In this document: positions 1,784 to 64,000 of the stretch, piece by piece
Layout of the letters: each line of letters begins with the position of its first letter
How positions within the stretch are numbered: the stretch's first letter is position 1
Source of the DNA: Escherichia coli
GTDB lineage: Bacteria; Pseudomonadota; Gammaproteobacteria; Enterobacterales; Enterobacteriaceae
NCBI RefSeq assembly: GCF_013315695.1
Contig: NZ_CP054354.1
DNA: 64,000 bases
Reading direction: 5' to 3' (one strand)
Position numbers and translations under genes: made by a program
Notes under the pieces: generated by a model
The model's input: only the letters and a program-made list of their open reading frames with translations
Told to the model about the DNA's origin: nothing
Databases searched by the model: none

Positions 1784-2244
1784 ACCAGGCATGTATATTT
1801 TACGCAGGGACATGCCGGTCATGATCGTTTCGTTCCAGGGGTGGTCTGGAGATCATGCGGTGTGCTCCCTGCTCTCGCCGGAATAAGGACGTCGCCGCCG
1901 GCTCCGCTTTTACCCGGCCATGCGGGGCATGGCCTTGTGGGTTTTCAGTTATGTGGCCGCCGTGTCGTGTGCGGGCTGTGCCGTGCCTCCATCGTAGCCG
2001 GGCTTCTGCGGGCGGGATGCAAGGTAAGATGAACCGCTGCGGTCACCCGGTCCCTCCTTCCCGTCTGCCGTGATTTTCCGGTCGTTCACCCGCTCAGATT
2101 TCGCGGTCTCACCCTCCAACTCCCGCCAGCCGTGTGCGTCAGGCTGCGGCTTCCCTTGCGCCCTTGCATCCCTGCAGGCCCGGCAAAGATGGAGGCACGG
2201 CACCGCCCGGTGTCGCAGAACATGTGACTATGGAGGATTCGGGA

Positions 2245-2745: not shown

Positions 2746-3112
2746 TTTACTCCCCGCTCCGGCGGGGGGATGGCCTGCCAGGCCCCCGGAAAACCCTGGC
2801 AGGCTTACGCCTGCCTGAAATACAGGAGGGCCGCGCCTGCGGCGCTACCCTTCCTGCCTGTCATAGTGTGAGGCATTTTTCTGTTTTGTCGTTTCTGTTG
2901 TTCTGACTCCCGGGGGCGGGGACACCCTTCGGCTCCCGGCTGCCTGGCGGCATCCGGTCGTCAGGCCCGACTCCGACAGGCAGCTGCTGGCGCACCCGCC
3001 AGTCTCCGCCGAACCCGCTGGCGCGGTTTCGGGCTGCCGCTACGGTCCGATGTCTGAAAAACCAGGCTTGCAGCGACCGTTCCGGTCGCGCCGCCTCTGT
3101 CGCGCCGTGACC

Positions 3113-3433
3113 TGCGCTCCCTGCACACCTGACGGTGTGTAAGGAAACTGCGCCTGATGGCGCAGTTGTCTGCCCTTCCGCCGCCCCCCCTGCGGCCTGT
3201 TTCCCCGCTGTGGACTTTCCGGGGGCTGAAGCGGCCACAACACGTTTCAGCCGTCCAGGGGAGAGATGTACCAGCCACAAAACTTTTTGCCGCAAGCGTC
3301 AAAAACTTTTGCGTCTGCCCCCGGACAACTGCCCCGTGCCGTGGCAGTCGCTGCCCCATCGGAAAGGTCCACTGCGGGGAGAAACCCCGAAGAAGTGGAC
3401 GGCAGAAGGGGCTTTCGCCCCTCCGGGGGAGCA
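3113..3433. repeat. copy A of ~320-bp GC-rich noncoding repeat (candidate ssDNA promoter or leader element)
   Basis: High nucleotide identity by eye to 6481..6795; similarity does not respect reading frame (ORFs drawn in the two copies diverge after a shared MYQPQNFLPQASKTFASAPGQLPR); lies directly upstream of a + strand gene. Confidence 0.7.
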
Positions 3434-3477
3434 ACCGGTCGGCCCGGCGACCTGATTCAGCAGAAGGAGACGTTTTC

Positions 3478-3912
3478 ATGACAGTCAGCAGCACGATTTC
3501 CGTTTTTTGCCGCGACGGGGTGTTCCGTACCGTTTACTGCCACCTGCACGGTGAGCCGACCTGGAACGGTCGCATCCTGCATACCCACTATGCCACCGGT
3601 CAGCAGGCCGAAGCCCTGGTTGAACACGGTGATATCCGTTGCCTCGGTCCCCGTTGCGACAAACCCGCCGGGCATACGCTTCAGAACCCGGTGGACGGTG
3701 TGACGGCTTATTACGGACGTGACAGTGGTTTCCGGATGGACAGTGAGGCGCGTGAGTACCGTTCTTTCAGGGAGGCCATCGCCACGGAAAGCACTGAAGA
3801 GGTGCGCTTCCATTATGTGTTCATCGACGGCTACTGGAAGGTGATGTACCGCACGCCGGAAGGCTGGAAGATGAAAGCGCTCGCGCTGGCACTGCGTCGC
3901 TGTCCGGAATGA
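3478..3912 (+). CDS. hypothetical protein, 144 aa, Cys/His-containing
   Basis: Internal ATG 3478 of ORF 3157..3912 (MTVSSTISVF...); upstream part of the track ORF lies in repeat A; followed by a hairpin. Confidence 0.5.
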   Translation: MTVSSTISVFCRDGVFRTVYCHLHGEPTWNGRILHTHYATGQQAEALVEHGDIRCLGPRCDKPAGHTLQNPVDGVTAYYGRDSGFRMDSEAREYRSFREAIATESTEEVRFHYVFIDGYWKVMYRTPEGWKMKALALALRRCPE

Positions 3913-3917
3913 AAAAA

Positions 3918-3945
3918 AGCAGGGCGATAAACCCTGCCTTTCTCC
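3918..3945 (+). terminator. putative hairpin terminator
   Basis: agcaggg-cgataaa-ccctgc stem-loop followed by a T-rich tract, just after the stop at 3910-3912. Confidence 0.35.
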
Positions 3946-4004
3946 GCTGGCGCTTCCCCGTACGGAAGTCCGGCATCTCATTCACTAACTATGGAGATTA
4001 TGCC

Positions 4005-4271
4005 ATGAGACCATCAATTATCTTCGCAACCGCCGAGTATGTAAAGCGTCTGCGAGAAGAGTGCCTGCGGGAGAACAAACCCCTGCACCGCCATACCCGC
4101 TTCAGACGCCAGGAACTGGCACCGGATGAGATTAACCCGGACGTCCTGGCGATGGGCGGTCATATCGCCAGACGCTGCAGTGAGCAGAAGCGGGTACGTA
4201 TCCCCGCCATGAAAGTCAGCGAATGGGGCCACCTGCTCCGCGCGCTTGAAATTGAACGGGTCTGTCACTGA
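4005..4271 (+). CDS. hypothetical protein, 88 aa
   Basis: ATG 4005 with GGAGA 7 nt upstream (MRPSIIFATAEY...); ORF 3909..4271. Confidence 0.4.
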   Translation: MRPSIIFATAEYVKRLREECLRENKPLHRHTRFRRQELAPDEINPDVLAMGGHIARRCSEQKRVRIPAMKVSEWGHLLRALEIERVCH

Positions 4272-4447
4272 TTAACCCCTGCCGTCTGCCTGTGCAGGTG
4301 GCAGGATGTGTTCAGGTACTTTACCAGGAGGAACCGTGAGCAAGATGAAAAACATCACGACGTCTGTGTTGCATGGTGTCTCCACAAAAAACAGAAAAGG
4401 GAAACAGATTCTCTTTCATTCAGGGCCCGGGAGGGCTGGAGATAACA

Positions 4448-4837
4448 ATGAAGTCTTGTTTTGATACTGACAAAGCTTTTCATATGTCTTTTGATGAAGT
4501 CACTTTCAACGCTGACAGAATTCGCTCAAAACTGGAACTATTATCCGAAGAACTAATGCCCCGTTGTGGTCTTGTTTATGAGCTATATCAGCGACGTTTG
4601 AGTGCTGCTATTGATAATTTTGTGGCCACATTGCCGACAGAACAACATCTACTGGTCCTGGAACTGGCCCGTGAGGAGTTTGATTACCTTTCCGCAGAAG
4701 AGATTGCTGAAGAAATACGCCGTGACTCAGAACGCGGCTATTGTTGTCATGGCTTTGAACGCAATTGCTGTCCTCTCGGTTGTGGGGATTTGGGCGATGA
4801 TTGCTGCGATGCTGCTGATTTGATGGAGGAACCGTGA
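4448..4837 (+). CDS. acidic protein with Cys-rich C-terminus, 129 aa
   Basis: ATG 4448 after GGAG (MKSCFDTDKAF...); many D/E; C-terminal CCHGFERNCCPLGCGDLGDDCCDAAD; stop TGA overlaps GTG start of rpn (GTGA). Confidence 0.5.
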   Translation: MKSCFDTDKAFHMSFDEVTFNADRIRSKLELLSEELMPRCGLVYELYQRRLSAAIDNFVATLPTEQHLLVLELAREEFDYLSAEEIAEEIRRDSERGYCCHGFERNCCPLGCGDLGDDCCDAADLMEEP

Positions 4838-5748
4838 GTAAGAAGAAAAACACCACAACGCCCACGCCGCATGATGCCGCGTTCCGGTCGTTCCTGGCGA
4901 ATCCCGACGTCGCCAGAGATTTTCTGGAACTGCATCTTCCTGCGGAGTACCGGCAGTTGTGCGACCTGTCCACGCTGAAGCTGGAACCCGCCACCTTTGT
5001 AGAGCCGGACCTGCATCAGTACGCCAGCGATATCCTCTGGAGCGTGAAAACCACCGGGGGTGAAGACGGCTATGTTTATACGCTCATCGAGCACCAGAGC
5101 ACAGAAAATCTGTACATGCCTTTTCGCATGTTACGCTACAGTGTGGCGGCGATGCAGAGACATCTGGAGCAGCACAAAACGTTGCCACTGGTGATTCCGG
5201 TGCTGTTCTATCACGGTGAGCGCAGCCCGTACCCGTACAGCATGAACTGGCTGGACTGTTTTGAGAATCCGGCACTTGCGGCTAAAATATACACAAAACC
5301 GTTTCCGCTGGTTGATATCACTGTCGTTGATGACAATGAAATCATGAATCATCGCCGGATGGCCGCACTGACGCTGCTGATGAAGCATATCCGCCATCGT
5401 GACATGATGGAGCTGCTGGACAAACTCCCGCAGGTCATGGTGGAAATTTCAGACGAGCAGGTGCGTGTTCTGATTCATTACATCGTTAACGCAGGGGACT
5501 CTGTATCACCGGAATTTATGCGGGCGCTGGCTGAGCGTCTGCCGCAGCATGAGGATAAACTGATGACTATCGCAGAACGTCTTGAGCAAAAAGGTCGCCA
5601 GGAAGGCAGGATGGAAGGACGCATGGAAGGAGCGCTTGAAAAAGCCCTGGCTATTGCGTGCCAGCTTCAGAAAATGGGGATGACGCCGGAGCAGATTAAG
5701 CAGGCTACCGGACTTTCCGATGACGAACTGAAGAAAATCACTCACTGA
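4834..5748 (+). CDS. rpn: Rpn-family recombination-promoting nuclease (YhgA-like, PD-(D/E)xK)
   Basis: 304 aa; N-terminal and core match the Rpn/YhgA-like family; C-terminal tail MTIAERLEQKGRQEGRMEGRMEG...; GTG start after GGAGG. Confidence 0.75.
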   Translation: MSKKKNTTTPTPHDAAFRSFLANPDVARDFLELHLPAEYRQLCDLSTLKLEPATFVEPDLHQYASDILWSVKTTGGEDGYVYTLIEHQSTENLYMPFRMLRYSVAAMQRHLEQHKTLPLVIPVLFYHGERSPYPYSMNWLDCFENPALAAKIYTKPFPLVDITVVDDNEIMNHRRMAALTLLMKHIRHRDMMELLDKLPQVMVEISDEQVRVLIHYIVNAGDSVSPEFMRALAERLPQHEDKLMTIAERLEQKGRQEGRMEGRMEGALEKALAIACQLQKMGMTPEQIKQATGLSDDELKKITH

Positions 5749-5761
5749 TGAGAACCGCAAA

Positions 5762-5786
5762 GCCCGGCAAAATCCCGGGCTTTTTT
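5762..5786 (+). terminator. rho-independent terminator after rpn
   Basis: gcccgg-caaaatc-ccgggc stem-loop followed by TTTTTT. Confidence 0.65.
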
Positions 5787-5810
5787 GCCTGCAGGAGCAG
5801 AGCAAACAGC

Positions 5811-5981
5811 ATGACGATTGCAGAACGTCTTATACAGAAAGGTTTTGAAAAAGGTGCTCTTGAAGTGGCGCGGGAAATAGCCTGCCGGCTGCGGGATATG
5901 GGCTGGACGCCGGAACGGATTCAGGAGGCGACCGGACTTTCCGGTGAAGAACTGAAAAAGCTGTTTCCTGATGAGCAGTAG
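5811..5981 (+). CDS. standalone Rpn C-terminal-tail-like small protein (RpnS-like)
   Basis: 56 aa from ATG 5811: MTIAERLIQKGFEKGALEVAREIACRLRDMGWTPERIQEATGLSGEELKKL closely parallels the last ~60 aa of the upstream Rpn. Confidence 0.55.
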   Translation: MTIAERLIQKGFEKGALEVAREIACRLRDMGWTPERIQEATGLSGEELKKLFPDEQ

Positions 5982-6011
5982 CCTGGCATTCTGCCAGGCT
6001 GTGAATCACGC

Positions 6012-6263
6012 TCACACATCCTCTGCCGTTTCCCCCAGTTCATTTTCCAGTCGCCTGATGATATCTGCCTTACGCATCCCCTGCATGTGAGGCAGCAGGT
6101 CACGGACTGAAAGTGCCTGGGTGGTCCTCCAGACGGTGACATCCACCTGCTCCGCATTTTCCCAGGCGTGCCATGTTCTCTGTGTCACGCCAAATTCTCT
6201 GGCCGCTTTTTCGCGTGACCAGAGCATGCTTTTTCGCCAGATTCGCAGTTCCCAGCCGGTCAT
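6012..6263 (-). CDS. XRE-like helix-turn-helix regulator
   Basis: 83 aa; ...REKAAREFGVTQRTWHAWEN... resembles an HTH DNA-binding motif; AT-rich promoter region with palindromes upstream. Confidence 0.55.
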   Translation of the reverse strand: MTGWELRIWRKSMLWSREKAAREFGVTQRTWHAWENAEQVDVTVWRTTQALSVRDLLPHMQGMRKADIIRRLENELGETAEDV

Positions 6264-6277
6264 AAAATACCTTTTAA

Positions 6278-6298
6278 AAAGTGAAAAAACTTCACTTT
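6278..6298. promoter_or_regulatory. palindromic operator-like site AAAGTGAA-N5-TTCACTTT
   Basis: Perfect 8-bp inverted arms with 5-nt spacer, just upstream of the minus-strand HTH gene start. Confidence 0.4.
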
Positions 6299-6344
6299 AT
6301 TTTATCACCATAATCACCAAATCAGCGCGAAAAATAAATGTGAA

Positions 6345-6365
6345 AAAGTGAAGAAATTTCACTTT
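6345..6365. promoter_or_regulatory. second palindromic operator-like site AAAGTGAA-N5-TTCACTTT
   Basis: Same arms as 6278..6298, 67 bp away. Confidence 0.4.
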
Positions 6366-6480
6366 TTTTAGTTGTAGATGTCGTGCTGTTTTCTCTGTTT
6401 TCACCTGTGCGGGAGTGGGTGTCAGTGACCACCACATGCCATTGTTGTGCCGTCGTTTTTCTTCAGTCGCGCCGGATGCA

Positions 6481-6795
6481 GCGCTCCCTGCACACCTTAC
6501 GGTGTGTAAGGCCACTGCGCCTGATGGCGCAGCTGTCTCTGCCTGTCTGCCGCCGCACTGCGGCCTGTTCTCCGCAGACGGACTTTCCGGGGAACATACA
6601 CGACCACATCCCGTTTCAGTTATCCAGGGGAGAGATGTACCAGCCACAAAACTTTTTGCCGCAGGCGTCAAAAACTTTTGCGTCTGCCCCCGGACAACTG
6701 CCCCGTGACGTGGTGAGCATCCCCCGTCGGAAAGGTCCACTGCGGGGAAATCCCCGAAGACCCGGACGGCAGAAGGAGCTTCGCTCCTCCGGGAA
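6481..6795. repeat. copy B of ~320-bp GC-rich noncoding repeat
   Basis: See copy A; lies directly upstream of the gene starting at 6841. Confidence 0.7.
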
Positions 6796-6840
6796 ATGAC
6801 CTGGCTGACCCGGCAGTCGTGACGATGAGGAGACAATGTG

Positions 6841-7689
6841 ATGAATCAGACTTTACCCACTGCTGACCTGAATACTGCCGGCACGACAGATGTTATTCCG
6901 TCTGTAGCTATCGACCGCATCATCGCGCAGCGTAACGAAGGTATTGCACTGTTCATGCAGGCGATGGAATGCCTGGCGACAGCGCGCAAGATTCTGCTCG
7001 ATGCGTCAGGTGATATTTTTCTTTACGGGTTTGAAGACTGCGTGACTGATTCCGTTCGTCGCATGGATAAGACGGAAGAAGCGAAAAGGAATATCACCCG
7101 TCTTGCCGACCGGAAAATCTGGGACCGCCTGATGACAGATACGGGCATGTACACCTTCATGAGTTCATGCCAGCGTGATGAGTGGAACAGCCAGCTGATG
7201 AGCGACACCTGTCCTGAAATCACCCTGGACAATGTACTGGCAACATTCCGCCATCTTAATGCCAGCAAGATGCAGACGTTTGAACAGGGGCTGATTGATG
7301 TCTACCGGAAATTGTCATGGGATTACAGAACCAATAATCCCTGCCGTCTGGGTAAGAAAATCATTATTGAAAACCTACTGTACCGCTGGAGTAACGGGCG
7401 TGTGACGCTGGACTGCAGCGGACGGGAGGCACTGGATGACCTGGTACGTCCGTTTTATCTGCTGGAGGGGCGCAACGTTCCTGACTTCAGGAACAGCATC
7501 GGGGCGCAGTATGGTGAATTTCTCGGGAACGGTGACAATGTCGGTAAGCTGTTAGAAGGGGAATATTTTACGGTGCGTGGCTACCAGAAAGGGACCGTAC
7601 ACATTGTCTTTAAGCGTTCTGACCTTGTTGAAAAACTGAATGATATTATTGCACGGCATTATCCTGGTGCATTGCCGCCACGAGTCTGA
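6841..7689 (+). CDS. hypothetical leading-region protein, ~282 aa
   Basis: ORF 6838..7689; ATG 6841 with GAGGAG 8 nt upstream; no recognisable motif. Confidence 0.55.
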   Translation: MNQTLPTADLNTAGTTDVIPSVAIDRIIAQRNEGIALFMQAMECLATARKILLDASGDIFLYGFEDCVTDSVRRMDKTEEAKRNITRLADRKIWDRLMTDTGMYTFMSSCQRDEWNSQLMSDTCPEITLDNVLATFRHLNASKMQTFEQGLIDVYRKLSWDYRTNNPCRLGKKIIIENLLYRWSNGRVTLDCSGREALDDLVRPFYLLEGRNVPDFRNSIGAQYGEFLGNGDNVGKLLEGEYFTVRGYQKGTVHIVFKRSDLVEKLNDIIARHYPGALPPRV

Positions 7690-8116: not shown

Positions 8117-8342
8117 TTTCTCTCCGTTTAATGTTGAAGCCTGATTTTATCATCAAAAACTGCCTCCTGGCAGGGCTGCGCCCTGCCTCTGCCGTCTGCA
8201 TAAGACTATGATGCACAAAAATAACAGGCTATAATGGACTGAAAAACGGGACAGGATGTGTAATCGTATAACCGCGCACGCACGGCTATACGATTACCAC
8301 CTGGTCAGGGCTTAGCCCCGACACCCCGGTAAGGAGCAGACC
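8117..8342. other. candidate origin of transfer (oriT)
   Basis: Intergenic region upstream of nikA; perfect 11-bp inverted repeat GTAATCGTATA (8260..8270) / TATACGATTAC (8287..8297); on the minus strand the repeat is followed 2 nt later by ATCCTG (8252..8258), resembling the MobP nick motif ATCCTG|C; second inverted repeat CAGGGC-TGC-GCCCTG nearby. Confidence 0.55.
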
Positions 8343-8675
8343 ATGAGTGAGAAGAAAACCCGAAGTGGCAGTGAGAAACGGCAAAAGAATGTCCTCATTG
8401 CTGTTCGTTTTTCACCAGAAGAGGCTGAGATTGTTAAAGAAAAGGCAGAAAAAAACGGACTGACAGTTTCAACTCTGATAAGAAAAACTGTGCTGGGAAA
8501 ACAGATAAATGCCCGCATTGACGAAGATTTTTTGAAAGAGCTGATGCGTCTTGGTCGCCTGCAGAAGCATCTGTTTGTGGAAGGAAAACGCACGGGAGAT
8601 AAAGAGTATGCAGAGGTTCTCGTTGCTATTACAGAGCTTGCTAATACTCTGCGAAGAAATTTAATGGGACGCTGA
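8343..8675 (+). CDS. nikA: NikA-like relaxosome accessory protein (ribbon-helix-helix)
   Basis: 110 aa, same size as R64 NikA; AGGAG RBS; directly upstream of the relaxase. Confidence 0.65.
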   Translation: MSEKKTRSGSEKRQKNVLIAVRFSPEEAEIVKEKAEKNGLTVSTLIRKTVLGKQINARIDEDFLKELMRLGRLQKHLFVEGKRTGDKEYAEVLVAITELANTLRRNLMGR

Positions 8676-8686
8676 GATAATCGCTG

Positions 8687-11407
8687 ATGAATGCCATCAT
8701 TCCGAAAAAAAGACGTGACGGAAAGTCTTCTTTTGAAGACCTGATTGCGTACACCTCAGTGCGGGATGATGTGCCGGAAGATGAACTCAGGCCTGACACG
8801 GAAATGAAAGCTGAGATTCCGCACCGGAACCGCTTCAGACGTCTTGTTGATTATGCAACACGTCTGCGTAATGAAAAATTTGTTTCCCTGATTGATGTGA
8901 TGAAAGACGGCAGTCAGTGGGTGAATTTCTATGGTGTGACCTGCTTTCATAACTGTTTGTCTCTTGAATCTGCGGCTGAAGAAATGCAGAAAGCAGCAGA
9001 GCTTGCTCATTTTTCCAAAGATGATACAGACCCTGTTTTTCACTATATTCTCTCCTGGCCTGCGCACGAAAGTCCGCGTTCTGAGCAGCTTTTTGACTGT
9101 GTGCGTCACACCCTGAAATCCCTTGAGCTGTCAAAACATCAGTATGTGGCAGCCGTTCATACAGACACGGATAACCTGCATGTACATGTTGCAGTGAATC
9201 GTGTCCACCCTGAAACCGGCTATATCAATTGCCTTCCGTGGAGCCAGGAAAAACTCAGTCGTGCATGCCGTGAACTTGAACTTAAGCACGGATTCGCGCC
9301 GGATAATGGTTGCTTTGTACATGCACCGGGCAATCGTATTGTGCGCAAAACAGCGCTGGTACGTGAGCGCCGTAATGCCTGGCGACGCGGGAAAAAGCAG
9401 ACGTTCAGGGAATATATTGATCAGATGTCGATTGCCGGGCTGCGTGAAGAGCCAGCACAGGACTGGTTATCTTTGCATAAACGGCTGGCCAGTGATGGTC
9501 TGTATATCACGATGCAGGAAGGGGAACTGGTGGTGAAGGATGGCTGGGACAAAGCGCGGGAAGGTATTGCACTCAGTTCGTTCGGACCGTCATGGACAGC
9601 TGAAAAACTGGGGCGGAAACTGGGGGAATATCAGCCTGTACCGACAGATATTTTCAGTCAGGTGGGGACACCCGGTCGTTATGATCCGGAAGCCATAAAC
9701 GTTGATATCCGGCCGGAAAAAGTGGCAGAAACGGAGAGTCTGAAACAGTACGCCTGCCGTCATTTTGCCGAACGCTTACTGGCAATGGCGCGCAATGGTG
9801 AACTGAAAAGCTGCCTGGCTGTACACCGTACTCTGGCAGAGGCGGGATTATGGATGGGGATTCAACACGGGCATCTGGTACTGCATGATGGATTTGATAA
9901 ACAACAGACACCAGTACGTGCAGACAGTGTGTGGCCGTTAATGACGCTGGATTACATGCAGGATCTGGATGGTGGATGGCAGCCTGTACCGAAGGATATT
10001 TTTACTCAGGTCGTTCCCGGAGAACGATTCCGGGGACACAGTATTGGCTCTCAGCCTGTCAGTGATTACGAATGGTATCGCATGAGGATGGGCACAGGTC
10101 CGCAGGGGGCTATAAAGCGTGAACTGTTTTCTGATAAGGAAAGTCTGTGGGGATACGGCCTTATTCAGTGCAGGAGCCTGATTGAAGAGATGATAGCTGA
10201 CGGGGATTTCAGCTGGCAGGCATGTCATGAGATGTTTGCACGTAAAGGGCTTATGCTGCAGAAACAGCATCATGGTCTTGTGATTGTGGATGCGTTTAAT
10301 CATGAGCTGACACCGGTGAAGGCCAGCAGTATCCATCCTGATTTGACGTTATCCCGTGCCGAGCCTCAGGCCGGGCCATTTGAAATTGCGGCTGCAGATA
10401 TTTTCGAACGGGTGAAGCCTGAATGTCGTTACAATCCGGAACTTGCTGCCAGTGATGAAGTGGAACCCGGCTTCCGGCGCGATCCTGAGATTCGTCGTGA
10501 GCGCCGTGAAGCCCGTGCAGCTGCGCGGGAAGATTTGCGTGCGCGTTATCTTGCATGGAAGGAGCACTGGCGTAAACCCGACTTACGTTACGGAGAACGG
10601 TTACGGGAAATTCATGCTGCCTGCCGTCGGCGCAAGGCGTATATCCGTGTGCAGTTCCGGGATCCACAATTGCGTAAGCTGCATTACCATATTGCGGAAG
10701 TGCAGCGTATGCAGGCGCTGATCAGGCTGAAGGAGAGTGTGAAGGAAGAGCGGTTGTCACTGATTGCGGAGGGTAAGTGGTATCCTTTGTCCTACCGGCA
10801 GTGGGTGGAACAACAGGCGGCTCAGGGAGACAGGGCTGCAGTATCGCAGTTACGTGGCTGGGATTATCGTGATCGTCGCTCGCGTAATAAGGATAAAAGA
10901 CGCACAACTAATGTTGATCGTTGTGTCGTACTCTGCGAACCCGGAGGAACGCCACTTTTTAATAATGTTGCAAAACTTGAAGCTCGTCTTCAGAAAAATG
11001 GAAGTGTTCATTTCAGGGATACGCGGACAGGAAAAAATGTCTGTACGGATTACGGAGATCGGGTTGTTTTCTACCATCACACGGACCGAAATGAACTGGC
11101 AGAGAAGCTTGATTTAATTGCGCCAGTTCTGTTCAGCCGCAACGGAAAGCTTGGTTTTGAGCCGGAAGGTTCATACCAGCAGTTTAATGATGTGTTTGCA
11201 GAAATGGTGGCCTGGCACAATGCAGCGGGAATAACCGGAAACGGACACTTCACCATTACTCGTCCGGACGTGGATTTGCACCGTCAACGCAGTGAGCAGT
11301 ATTACCGGGAATATATCAGACAGCAGACCCGTTTATCGGAGAGCCATGATGATAATTATACGTTACGGCAGGAGAAAACATGGGAGCCACCATCACCTGG
11401 AATGTAA
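8687..11407 (+). CDS. nikB: NikB-like MobP-family relaxase
   Basis: 906 aa; HTDTDNLHVHVAVNRV fits the relaxase HxDxxxxHxHxxxN histidine motif; size close to R64 NikB. Confidence 0.75.
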   Translation: MNAIIPKKRRDGKSSFEDLIAYTSVRDDVPEDELRPDTEMKAEIPHRNRFRRLVDYATRLRNEKFVSLIDVMKDGSQWVNFYGVTCFHNCLSLESAAEEMQKAAELAHFSKDDTDPVFHYILSWPAHESPRSEQLFDCVRHTLKSLELSKHQYVAAVHTDTDNLHVHVAVNRVHPETGYINCLPWSQEKLSRACRELELKHGFAPDNGCFVHAPGNRIVRKTALVRERRNAWRRGKKQTFREYIDQMSIAGLREEPAQDWLSLHKRLASDGLYITMQEGELVVKDGWDKAREGIALSSFGPSWTAEKLGRKLGEYQPVPTDIFSQVGTPGRYDPEAINVDIRPEKVAETESLKQYACRHFAERLLAMARNGELKSCLAVHRTLAEAGLWMGIQHGHLVLHDGFDKQQTPVRADSVWPLMTLDYMQDLDGGWQPVPKDIFTQVVPGERFRGHSIGSQPVSDYEWYRMRMGTGPQGAIKRELFSDKESLWGYGLIQCRSLIEEMIADGDFSWQACHEMFARKGLMLQKQHHGLVIVDAFNHELTPVKASSIHPDLTLSRAEPQAGPFEIAAADIFERVKPECRYNPELAASDEVEPGFRRDPEIRRERREARAAAREDLRARYLAWKEHWRKPDLRYGERLREIHAACRRRKAYIRVQFRDPQLRKLHYHIAEVQRMQALIRLKESVKEERLSLIAEGKWYPLSYRQWVEQQAAQGDRAAVSQLRGWDYRDRRSRNKDKRRTTNVDRCVVLCEPGGTPLFNNVAKLEARLQKNGSVHFRDTRTGKNVCTDYGDRVVFYHHTDRNELAEKLDLIAPVLFSRNGKLGFEPEGSYQQFNDVFAEMVAWHNAAGITGNGHFTITRPDVDLHRQRSEQYYREYIRQQTRLSESHDDNYTLRQEKTWEPPSPGM

Positions 11408-17056: not shown

Positions 17057-17245
17057 ATAATCTACGGACAGATTACTTTCTGTACTTCCAGAGCCTGTTT
17101 CTGTGAGTCAAACATGAGCTGGTTTTTACCGACTACACCCAAGTAAATATATTCGATATCTCCCATTTGCCGTATTTTCGTAAAATTCAACAGGAAATAT
17201 TCAACGGGAGTGAGAGAACTGCTGTCCGGGGAGGAGGTACAGACG

Positions 17246-17277
17246 CAAAAAAACCGACTGGTGAGGCCGGTTTTTTT
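17246..17277. terminator. bidirectional terminator-like hairpin (copy 2)
   Basis: aaaaaaaccgactggtgaggccggttttttt. Confidence 0.5.
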
Positions 17278-17593
17278 GCGATTCCGGATCGAAGTTGGTA
17301 GCCCTGACCGGAAGATAACTGCCTATAACTGACTATGAAATAATACGGCTGAAATAATATTTCTGCAAGCACAGTATAAGTATATACTCGGTGTGTCAGC
17401 TTTGAGGCACGTTCTTTCCGGCATATCGTTCACCGGGATGAACAGGTTGCAAGTCCTGGCCAAAACATCAGGTGGTGCTGGTTTTGGTGCTCTGGCCGGA
17501 GAAGAACTGTCTATAACTGACACTATAGAAAACGTGGCGACAGGCAATGTAAGGGCAAACCACGGTGTTCTTTCTCCATTGATGGAGAAGCGG

Positions 17594-20734: not shown

Positions 20735-20985
20735 ACGTAGTCACTTTCCGGCTTTATTTCTGTCCCTGACACAAAATACGTGGTGGCATGAAAAGGATTG
20801 TGGCGGACTGGAAAACGATTAGAATAGCGGCGGGCGCTTGAGGCTGTATGCCGAAAGCGTTTTGTGGACGGCATGTAGCAGAAAGCCCCAGGCGATTTTT
20901 TTATCAATCAACCCAGGGCCCACTGTAATGCCTCAACAACATTATAGTAGCCCGATGACGGCCGAAAGGCAATGGAGGGGCTGCG

Positions 20986-21138
20986 ATGCCACAACGAACG
21001 TTTTTAATGATGTTAATCGTCGTCTGTGTGACGATACTGTGTTTTGTCTGGATGGTGAGGGATTCGCTTTGCGGATTTCGTATCGAGCAGGGAAATACGG
21101 TGCTTGTGGCAACGTTAGCCTACGAAGTTAAACGTTAA
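20986..21138 (+). CDS. hok: Hok/Gef-family type I toxin (PndA/Hok-like), 50 aa
   Basis: Not in ORF track (<60 aa). MPQRTFLMMLIVVCVTILCFVWMVRDSLCGFRIEQGNTVLVATLAYEVKR matches the Hok/PndA pattern; overlapped in another frame by ORF 20838..21131 (mok-like). Confidence 0.7.
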   Translation: MPQRTFLMMLIVVCVTILCFVWMVRDSLCGFRIEQGNTVLVATLAYEVKR

Positions 21139-57176: not shown

Positions 57177-58247
57177 TTATTCCTGCGGGCGGTCTGTCAC
57201 ACGGAGCAGGCATTGTGCAGTGCTGGTCCGGGCATACAGCGGTTTTTCAGCCGGGGTATAGAGTGCAAAGAGCTGCTCCAGCGCCTGGCGGAAACTGCCG
57301 GTGAAAACCAGAGGGGCATCGATGCTGTAGTTGACAGGTGTTTCCCAGCGCAGTGTCCATGTGCCGTGCGGGCATTTTTCGGATGATGTCCAGCGGGCCA
57401 GTCCGTCTTTCAGGGTGGTCCCCTTTTCCATTTTCCACTGCCGTGGCGGTATGACCTTCTGCTGTGGTGGCACTACCGGTTTCGTGGCCACCGGGGCTGG
57501 CGTGGTTGTTCTGCTCTCTGGAGTTCCGGATCTCCCGGTGGTGGTCTGAGCCCGGGAAACGCTGACGGCAGGTGTCACTGGTGTCGGGCCTGCCGGCGTT
57601 GCGGCGCTGCCCCTGAACGGATTACGCGGTGTATCAGCAGCTTTCTGTGAACCCTGCGGTGCCGTGACGTCGACCGGCGGTGTTGCAGAGGTCGTGACAG
57701 TCAGTATTTTCCTGTTCCAGTCCATATGTCCGTAAAGCTGCTGGCCGGCCAGCAGCGCATTCAGTGCCCGGTGCCACTGGTCATTAACGGACCAGACGGG
57801 GAGGCGTTTGTTCAGTGCCGGTATGGCAGCGTTCTGTTGCCGGAACTGCCAGCCGGGTGGTAGCAACTGGCGTATCCAGTCACTGACGGAGCGCTGATGT
57901 GCCTCACGTAAATAAACGACGGATGACTGACCGGGTTTACCGGTCATAACCAGTGCGGGCAGCTGTGTGGCCTGAAGGAGCGGACGGGGAGGCAGTGCGG
58001 TACTCTGGCTGCTGACTGCGGTTGTGGGCGTCGCTGTTGTTGTCGGGCGGGGCGGCGTCACAGGGCGGGTCACCGGTGGCGGAAGCAGACGTTTTTGCGT
58101 ATGGGCGATAATGGCAGCGCTTTCGCGAATTTGTCCGTCGACGAACACCAGAGCCGGAGGCGTGGTGTCAGGAACAGGCGTGGCATTAAATGCCGTACAG
58201 CCGCTGAGTAATGACGGCAGAAGGAGTGTAAGTGATTTCTTTTTCAT
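57177..58247 (-). CDS. pilL: PilL-like lipoprotein (TcpQ-like C-terminal domain)
   Basis: 356 aa; lipobox LLSGC; Pro/Thr-rich linker; first gene of pil operon. Confidence 0.7.
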   Translation of the reverse strand: MKKKSLTLLLPSLLSGCTAFNATPVPDTTPPALVFVDGQIRESAAIIAHTQKRLLPPPVTRPVTPPRPTTTATPTTAVSSQSTALPPRPLLQATQLPALVMTGKPGQSSVVYLREAHQRSVSDWIRQLLPPGWQFRQQNAAIPALNKRLPVWSVNDQWHRALNALLAGQQLYGHMDWNRKILTVTTSATPPVDVTAPQGSQKAADTPRNPFRGSAATPAGPTPVTPAVSVSRAQTTTGRSGTPESRTTTPAPVATKPVVPPQQKVIPPRQWKMEKGTTLKDGLARWTSSEKCPHGTWTLRWETPVNYSIDAPLVFTGSFRQALEQLFALYTPAEKPLYARTSTAQCLLRVTDRPQE

Positions 58248-63700: not shown

Positions 63701-64000
63701 TATTCAGTGGCTTTTGGGATCCTCGCGGTCCGGAAAGCCAGAAAACGGCAGAATGCGCCATAAGGCATTCAGGACGTATGGCAGAAACGACGGCAGTTTG
63801 CCGGTGCCGGAAGGCTGAAAAAAGTTTCAGAAGACCATAAAGGAAAACCCCCACTATTTTTCCTCGAACTTGGCGGAACGCAGAAAAATAATGGGGGCCT
63901 CACAGAATACGGGATAAGTATATATGAAACCGTACCAGAGATTCAACCCTGTGCAGTGTATAAATACACGGCACAATCGCTCCGCCATAAGCGACAGCTT

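Follow-up and report, generated by a model that had tools for sequence, protein, structure and literature searches.

Two hairpin repeats in the leading region of an Escherichia coli I-complex plasmid are very probably class 1 single-stranded DNA promoters

The stretch analyzed here, a 64,000-nucleotide (nt) window of Escherichia coli contig NZ_CP054354.1, was found to carry two copies of a noncoding repeat of about 330 nt, copy A at 3096-3440 and copy B at 6463-6793, whose identity and likely role are the subject of this report. The DNA of the window belongs to a conjugative plasmid of the I-complex and comprises its leading region. Its genes follow one another in the order psiB (37-474), psiA, an open reading frame (ORF) of 197 amino acids, ardA (2245-2745), an ORF of 144 amino acids (3478-3912), an Rpn-family gene, a helix-turn-helix (HTH) gene, a DUF4942 gene (6841-7689), MobC, nikA/mobA (8343-8675) and the relaxase gene (8687-11407), which matches the order in plasmid p86 and in the IncI1 plasmid pESBL-EA11 (pESBL). 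Copy A is 100% identical to its best match, the E. coli plasmid p86, which is typed as IncK2/Z, MOBP and MPF_I.

The nick-region motif of MOBP relaxases, such as those of RP4 and R64, is YATCCTG/Y (the slash marks the nick), and in R64 the nick lies 8 nt from an inverted repeat. In the window the minus strand carries the sequence ACATCCTG/T at about 8251/8252, presumably the MOBP nick site, and an 11-nt inverted repeat, GTAATCGTATA / TATACGATTAC (8260-8297), lies 8 nt away. Since the motif lies on the minus strand, this is the transferred strand (T-strand), with its 5' end at about 8251 and the coordinates below entering first, and it is therefore the template for the plus-strand leading genes; a first-pass annotation of the window had arrived at the same polarity. 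About 1.5 kb separates copy B from the nick and about 4.8 kb copy A, which accords with the spacing of ssi1 and ssi2 in the ColIb-P9 record; the genes adjoining both copies are on the plus strand.

A BLASTN comparison of the window with itself paired the two copies at 84.2% identity over 336 columns (E 7.5e-96), and a repeat search of the window returned the same pair as five collinear blocks (D1, D3, D5, D10 and D11). The first-pass annotation had placed the pair at 3113..3433 and 6481..6795, which is off by about 17 nt on the left and by 2-6 nt on the right. Six indels separate the copies in a MAFFT alignment, with sizes of 2, 1, 1, 1, 1 and 1 nt, none of them a multiple of three. As had been proposed, the similarity is at the nucleotide level and ignores reading frame, since the translations of the ORFs overlying the two copies are 34-46% identical, and this only in the conserved DNA core, compared with 84% identity between the nucleotides. 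Both copies end about 50 nt before a plus-strand gene with a strong Shine-Dalgarno sequence (AGAAGGAGA and then ATG 3478 on the side of copy A, GAGGAG and then ATG 6841 on the side of copy B), so that their placement immediately upstream of such genes was also correct.

Only these two copies were found within the window by an nhmmer search with a profile of the family. A weak BLAST match at 58056-58097 (42 nt, E 0.005) was considered as an extra copy but was absent from the profile search, and it was treated as chance. A third copy, 98.5% identical to ssi3, is found upstream of ssb in the near-identical plasmid p86, at a position just beyond the edge of the window. An Rfam scan of the repeat region returned zero families, whether at gathering thresholds or at E <= 1, and no sigma-70-like duplex promoter was found on the plus strand within 2746-3477 and 6264-6840 at strict thresholds.

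The ssi1, ssi2 and ssi3 elements of ColIb-P9 were reportedly proposed by Bates et al. in 1999, and the Frpo elements of F (Frpo1, or ssiD, and Frpo2) are said to have been described by Masai and Arai in 1997 and by Couturier et al. in 2023. The two copies were compared by BLASTN with five reference Frpo/ssi sequences taken from the supplement of Samuel et al., 2024 (PMC11541004, supplementary file 4). Copy B is 97.9% identical to ssi1 (AJ238399:1459-1787) over all 329 nt (E 1e-161) and differs very little from the ssi1 copy that precedes the DUF4942 gene in pESBL. Over its full length copy A is 86.7% identical to ssi2 (331 nt, E 5e-110), 85.5% to ssi1 and 83.9% to ssi3, and its flanks are common with those of pESBL ssi2. 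The core of copy A is 75% identical to F ssiD/Frpo over 136 nt (E 2e-15), the cores of both copies falling within 75-77%, and F ssiE gave no BLASTN match anywhere in the window. This alignment to known elements had been suggested as a check on an Frpo/ssi reading of the repeats, and it bore that reading out, the copies being full-length homologues of ColIb-P9 ssi1 and ssi2 and core homologues of F Frpo.

Single-stranded DNA (ssDNA) promoters have been divided into class 1, comprising ssi1-3 with the Frpo elements, class 2, comprising the hairpins before ardA and klcA, and class 3, before M.EcoGIX (PMC12672017). Both copies lie in the leading region and are oriented with the T-strand as template, which is the location and orientation of class 1. 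With ColIb-P9 ssi1-3 and pESBL class 1 they have in common the loci, the gene order, the orientation to the origin of transfer (oriT) and a hairpin with a 10-nt bulge, whereas the host plasmid is IncK2/Z-like and not IncI1, and in copy A a frame of ssi2 type encloses a core of ssi1 type and an end of ssi3 type. With F Frpo1 (ssiD) and Frpo2 they share 70-77% identity over the central ~140 nt, the A/T-rich upper stem, TTG(Y)GG, an asymmetric loop with CAT.T, and CCCCTGGAC paired to GTCCGGGGG, together with the leading-region position, the T-strand polarity and a conserved upstream segment of ~70 nt. However, the F hairpin is longer (~320 nt of stem), its lower stem is unrelated in sequence to that of the I-type, and the downstream genes differ.

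The element matched at least 5000 records of the plasmid collection, mostly conjugative Escherichia and Salmonella plasmids. Among the plasmid matches listed it is usually unannotated, or lies under a coding sequence (CDS) named 'hypothetical protein' or DUF1472. Such CDSs over class 1 hairpins and over the pre-hairpin module described below are probably spurious gene calls, since the variation breaks the frame.

When the T-strand of copy A was compared with the three ColIb-P9 references in 40-column identity windows, the first ~75 columns were found to be 100% ssi2-type, the core (both upper-stem arms and the bulge) 97% ssi1-type, the next part again ssi2-type (93-95%) and the 3' end ssi3-type. 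This pattern suggests that copy A may be the product of gene conversion moving promoter cores among dispersed copies. Recombination between such repeats has been described for I-complex plasmids (PMC3817090). The copy A variant, at an identity of 99% or more, is present in at least 175 plasmid records.

Folded as ssDNA, the minus strand of copy A reached -110.3 kcal/mol (z -10.0 against dinucleotide shuffles) and that of copy B -95.2 kcal/mol (z -7.0), with 0 of 100 shuffles as stable in either case. The plus strands reached -93.8 (z -7.3) and -77.6 kcal/mol (z -4.8), respectively. In both copies folding thus favors the minus strand, by 14-17 kcal/mol under DNA parameters and 25-29 kcal/mol under RNA parameters, and this strand contains 6-10 G.T pairs compared with 2-4 on the plus strand. 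This asymmetry is as predicted by selection on folding of the transferred strand, and it speaks against a structure acting in the mRNA leader. Folding both strands had been named as the first check on the repeats, and the long imperfect hairpin that was expected is both stable and biased to the minus strand.

The main hairpin consists of an A/T-rich upper stem of ~21 bp with a 4-nt tip loop, a 10-nt bulge GTACATCTCT on the 3' arm only, and a lower stem which starts with CCCCTGGA paired to TGTCCGGGGG (Table 1). Covariation was examined in the cores of 11 homologues, which included the window copies, p86 ssi3, ColIb ssi2, F Frpo1 and Frpo2, as well as Serratia, insect-metagenome and Salmonella candidates of Samuel et al. 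Of the 27 lower-stem pairs of the consensus structure, 12 stay paired with both sides altered.

Table 1. Coordinates of the repeats, their hairpin parts and associated features (positions are those of the window; a slash marks the nick).
Feature	Position	Strand	Basis or remarks
Class 2 ssDNA promoter hairpin (putative) before ardA (2245-2745)	1973..2209	-	Inverted repeat, fold, homology
Pre-hairpin module	2927..3096	.	Run of short GC-rich hairpins, with 17-nt palindrome GCGACCGTTCCGGTCGC at 3073-3089
Copy A, very probable class 1 ssDNA promoter at the ssi2 locus	3097..3425	-	Homology, fold, mosaic pattern
Main imperfect hairpin, copy A	3197..3395	-	76 pairs, tip loop 3292-3297; minimum-free-energy structure
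10-nt bulge GTACATCTCT, copy A	3262..3271	-	3' non-template arm only; contains family-conserved CAT.T
Candidate -35 TTGTGG, copy A	3275..3280	-	After A/T-rich tract AAAAAGTTTT (3279-3288); TGGACG 17 nt downstream, 3252-3257
First gene after copy A	3478..3912	+	144-amino-acid conserved protein, function unknown; CDS in p86 and pESBL
Copy B, very probable class 1 ssDNA promoter, orthologue of ColIb-P9 ssi1 ('Frpo1' in Samuel et al., 2024)	6464..6791	-	Homology, fold
Main imperfect hairpin, copy B	6579..6739	-	62 pairs, tip loop 6661-6666; minimum-free-energy structure
10-nt bulge GTACATCTCT, copy B	6631..6640	-	3' non-template arm only
Candidate -35 TTGTGG, copy B	6644..6649	-	TGGATA 17 nt downstream, 6621-6626
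Gene after copy B	6841..7689	+	DUF4942 protein; first leading-region gene into the recipient
oriT nick region	8251..8297	-	5'-GTAATCGTATA...TATACGATTAC ACATCCTG/TCCCG-3', sited between MobC and nikA

In this hairpin the 3' arm, read from tip to base, has to be the non-template strand, and the 5' arm, from which the path continues to the gene, acts as template. The 3' arm keeps the following features family-wide and in this order: an A/T-rich tract, TTG(Y)GG, the asymmetric bulge with an invariant CAT.T, and CCCCTGGAC. The TTG at the candidate -35 position is conserved in the F, I-type, Serratia and Salmonella homologues, and the bulge is a candidate pre-melted -10 region. The boxes may be assigned in two ways. 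Either TTGTGG is the -35 and TGGACG or TGGATA the -10, with flanking G.T mismatches followed by an AAA/GGG internal loop, or the -10 lies in the pre-melted bulge (TACATC) and the -35 near the tip. In published work the stem has been described as reconstituting the -35 and -10 boxes (PMC9849209, PMC12672017, PMC7690428). Of the earlier expectation of a hairpin presenting -35 and -10 elements, the stable hairpin was found, while the boxes answer to it weakly, as conserved candidates that lack a strong consensus.

Taken together, it is very probable that the repeats, one being ssi1 and the other the copy at the ssi2 locus, act as ssDNA promoters of class 1 in an I-complex plasmid and are homologous to F Frpo. 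During conjugation the minus strand would enter the recipient 5' end first from the nick at ~8251, and on it each ~330-nt element would fold back as a long imperfect hairpin, the stem of which would serve as duplex DNA for sigma-70 RNA polymerase. On the non-template (3') arm, a pre-opened region could be provided by the asymmetric 10-nt bulge together with G.T mismatches, and the polymerase would use the 5' arm as template and leave via the base of the hairpin. In this way sense mRNA of the downstream plus-strand genes (3478 onward and 6841 onward) would be made before a complementary strand exists. Synthesis of that strand would then abolish the hairpin and switch the promoter off, giving a transient 'zygotic' burst of expression.

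Support for such a mechanism comes from the related plasmids. The stem-loop of F Frpo is recognised by RNA polymerase in vitro and its transcripts can prime DNA synthesis (PMC9849209, PMC7690428). Deletion of Frpo1 or Frpo2 leads to loss of early expression in transconjugants, and conversion to double-stranded DNA turns the Frpo promoters off (PMC9849209). For pESBL, donor-depleted RNA-seq revealed the induction of six leading operons, to each of which an ssDNA promoter was assigned by homology-independent hairpin mining and 5' RACE (rapid amplification of cDNA ends); the class 1 start sites were mapped by 5' RACE and showed the strongest induction, up to ~500-fold (PMC12672017, 2025). A similar principle is known from the RNA-polymerase-dependent single-strand origins (sso) of rolling-circle plasmids, in which a folded single strand likewise offers a promoter-like duplex to the host polymerase (PMC7690428). 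The sso elements supply only a primer for lagging-strand synthesis and drive no protein-coding genes, and they are likened to the present repeats by mechanism, not by sequence.

Several points weigh against this interpretation. No strong TTGACA-N15-19-TATAAT pair was found on the T-strand of either copy (best sums 7-8 of 12), and F Frpo1 and Frpo2 likewise have no such pair above 8 of 12. Both box assignments appear to fit the conserved features of the hairpin, and the strict thresholds of the plus-strand scan leave room for a weak conventional duplex promoter. Homology, position, strand, fold, strand bias and covariation were established on this plasmid itself; promoter activity, start sites and shut-off of its elements would follow by orthology from ColIb-P9, F and pESBL, and copy A is chimeric in sequence. 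On homology, strand and hairpin the single-strand promoter interpretation, as first put forward, is supported.

It could be argued that the copies are mainly priming (ssi) sites, giving a short primer RNA for complementary-strand synthesis with gene expression secondary. The sequence homology favors this to the same degree as it favors promoters; members of this family originally came to light as ssi signals (F ssiD), and priming of DNA synthesis by Frpo transcripts in vitro has been joined by an in vivo contribution reported in a 2026 preprint. However, priming is compatible with a promoter role and does not exclude it. Some 50 nt beyond each copy a gene begins that is on the correct strand and has a strong ribosome-binding site, and the strongest induction in pESBL came from class 1 elements (PMC12672017), leaving a mainly priming function improbable. 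A structured 5' mRNA leader, that is, a regulatory hairpin acting at the RNA level and transcribed from a conventional duplex promoter upstream, would account for the finding that the plus strand also folds better than its shuffles (z -7.3 and -4.8), but this is expected of any long inverted repeat. The leader reading was rejected on the strand bias of the fold, which favors the minus strand by the 14-17 (DNA) or 25-29 kcal/mol (RNA parameters) given above. The G.T wobbles of the minus strand become A.C mismatches in plus-sense RNA, no sigma-70-like plus-strand promoter was found upstream in the strict-threshold scan, and there was no Rfam match at E <= 1, so that a leader is very unlikely.

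Dispersal of the copies, the presence of an Rpn-family nuclease/putative transposase gene in the interval, a published speculation that the segment enclosed by such repeats could be mobile (PMC3817090) and the public CDSs ('hypothetical protein', DUF1472) that sometimes cover such elements could point to remnants of a mobile element (a miniature inverted-repeat transposable element or the end of an insertion sequence), to a duplicated coding segment or to a translated leader. When the ends of the copies were read directly, neither terminal inverted repeats nor target-site duplications were seen, and the positions are syntenic in ColIb-P9, pESBL and p86; on these grounds a mobile-element remnant was rejected. 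A coding origin was rejected as well, as all six indels shift the frame and the translated identity is 34-46% compared with 84% for the nucleotides. With the hairpin also preserved by compensatory changes, a mobile or coding origin is scarcely credible.

Two further noncoding stretches, 1790-2240 and 2750-3110, had been named in the first-pass annotation as possible additional examples. The former appears to be an ssDNA promoter, although of the unrelated class 2, and the latter is no promoter. Class 2 promoters, as defined in PMC12672017, follow the same principle as the two repeats, namely a long leading-region hairpin on the T-strand before an anti-restriction gene. The stretch 1790-2240 contains a 32-nt inverted repeat (I1, 1972-2003 / 2178-2209) and folds as a hairpin spanning 1973-2209. 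Both class 2 features were found here, homology to the ardA/klcA hairpins and a T-strand hairpin with -35 and -10 candidates: a -35 TTGCAT at 2017-2022 and a -10 TACGAT at 1991-1996, the latter with two mismatches against ATCTTT at 2185-2190. A paralogue in p86, 95% identical, lies upstream of a klcA/ardB-like antirestriction gene, and the hairpin shows 90% identity with the DNA preceding the antirestriction gene of F and 79% with the candidate Frpo' 4 of Samuel et al. Its F homologue, ssp2 or Frpo3, has been reported to stall complementary-strand synthesis as a replication roadblock. In contrast with the two repeats, to which it has no sequence similarity in the BLASTN comparison of the window with itself, this hairpin has clearer -35 and -10 candidates. 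The known set of elements is complete in the window, in the order class 2, class 1, class 1, oriT.

The stretch 2750-3110 was rejected as an ssDNA promoter, as its hairpins are short, show no strand bias and have no gene of their own, and as it is absent from the six promoters of pESBL (PMC12672017). It folds into several short hairpins with -102.2 and -96.8 kcal/mol on the two strands (z -4.6 and -4.9), and it is followed by the class 1 hairpin and not by a gene. Its first part resembles the region after the last gene of another operon (81% identity in p86, 70% in F) and is probably an operon end, a reading suggested by the T-rich run at its end.

The second part (2927-3110) recurs before ssi3 of p86 with 96.7% identity, and it has matches in at least 5000 plasmid records at 91-97% identity. 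The last ~70 nt of this pre-hairpin module, including the palindrome GCGACCGTTCCGGTCGC, are 94-96% identical to the sequence upstream of F Frpo1 and Frpo2 and are thus more conserved between F and the I-complex than the promoter hairpins themselves (70-77%). Plasmids p86, F and pESBL each have exactly two occurrences of the palindrome, and the module is absent upstream of copy B (ssi1). Matches to the module were located in the comparison sequences L001 (5487-5670) and L002 (10175-10242 and 15562-15631). In the insect-metagenome homologue, two of its hairpins were judged by eye to keep their structure with a changed sequence.

In the few cases available, the module is confined to promoters that directly follow a co-directional operon. 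One conceivable role is that of a terminator or insulator, which would shield the promoter hairpin from being melted by polymerase running in from that operon; this idea fits the few places in which the module occurs. Alternatively, the module might be a recognition site for a protein or a hairpin. That it is an unrecognised functional companion of class 1 promoters in one of these roles is put forward as a tentative and rather doubtful proposal.

The 144-amino-acid protein encoded after copy A matches PHROG 1987 (E 5e-21), and its gene heads a plus-strand gene run to ~5981. The DUF4942 protein weakly resembles a DNA methyltransferase PHROG. Parts of the Rpn-family nuclease/putative transposase gene (4834-5748) are duplicated nearby (4327-4378 and 5811-5981): its ribosome-binding site and first codons are repeated at 4327-4378 (79%), and its C-terminal ~110 nt at 5851-5959, in a small ORF (5811-5981) that still matches the Rpn family profile. 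An AT-rich segment at 6264-6369 probably serves as promoter/operator of the HTH regulator gene on the minus strand (6012-6263), the start of which it abuts; it contains a direct repeat of 39 nt and an inverted repeat of 23 nt, AAAAAGTGAA...TTCACTTT. Elsewhere in the window Rfam matches were obtained for the AgrB antisense RNA (17245-17332, minus strand, 47.7 bits), the sok antitoxin RNA (20832-20988, 124.7 bits) and the repZ regulatory pseudoknot (63840-63988, 188.9 bits).

The two repeats are nothing new in kind, being already known ssi1/ssi2 class 1 promoters, because they are orthologues of promoters that have been published and mapped experimentally. The practical value of recognising them lies in annotation, as public records leave these elements unannotated or under probably spurious CDSs. 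Through hairpin promoters of this type a plasmid achieves its first burst of expression on entering a new host, with genes for anti-restriction, SOS inhibition and other establishment functions among those expressed, and the promoters therefore affect the spread of resistance plasmids.

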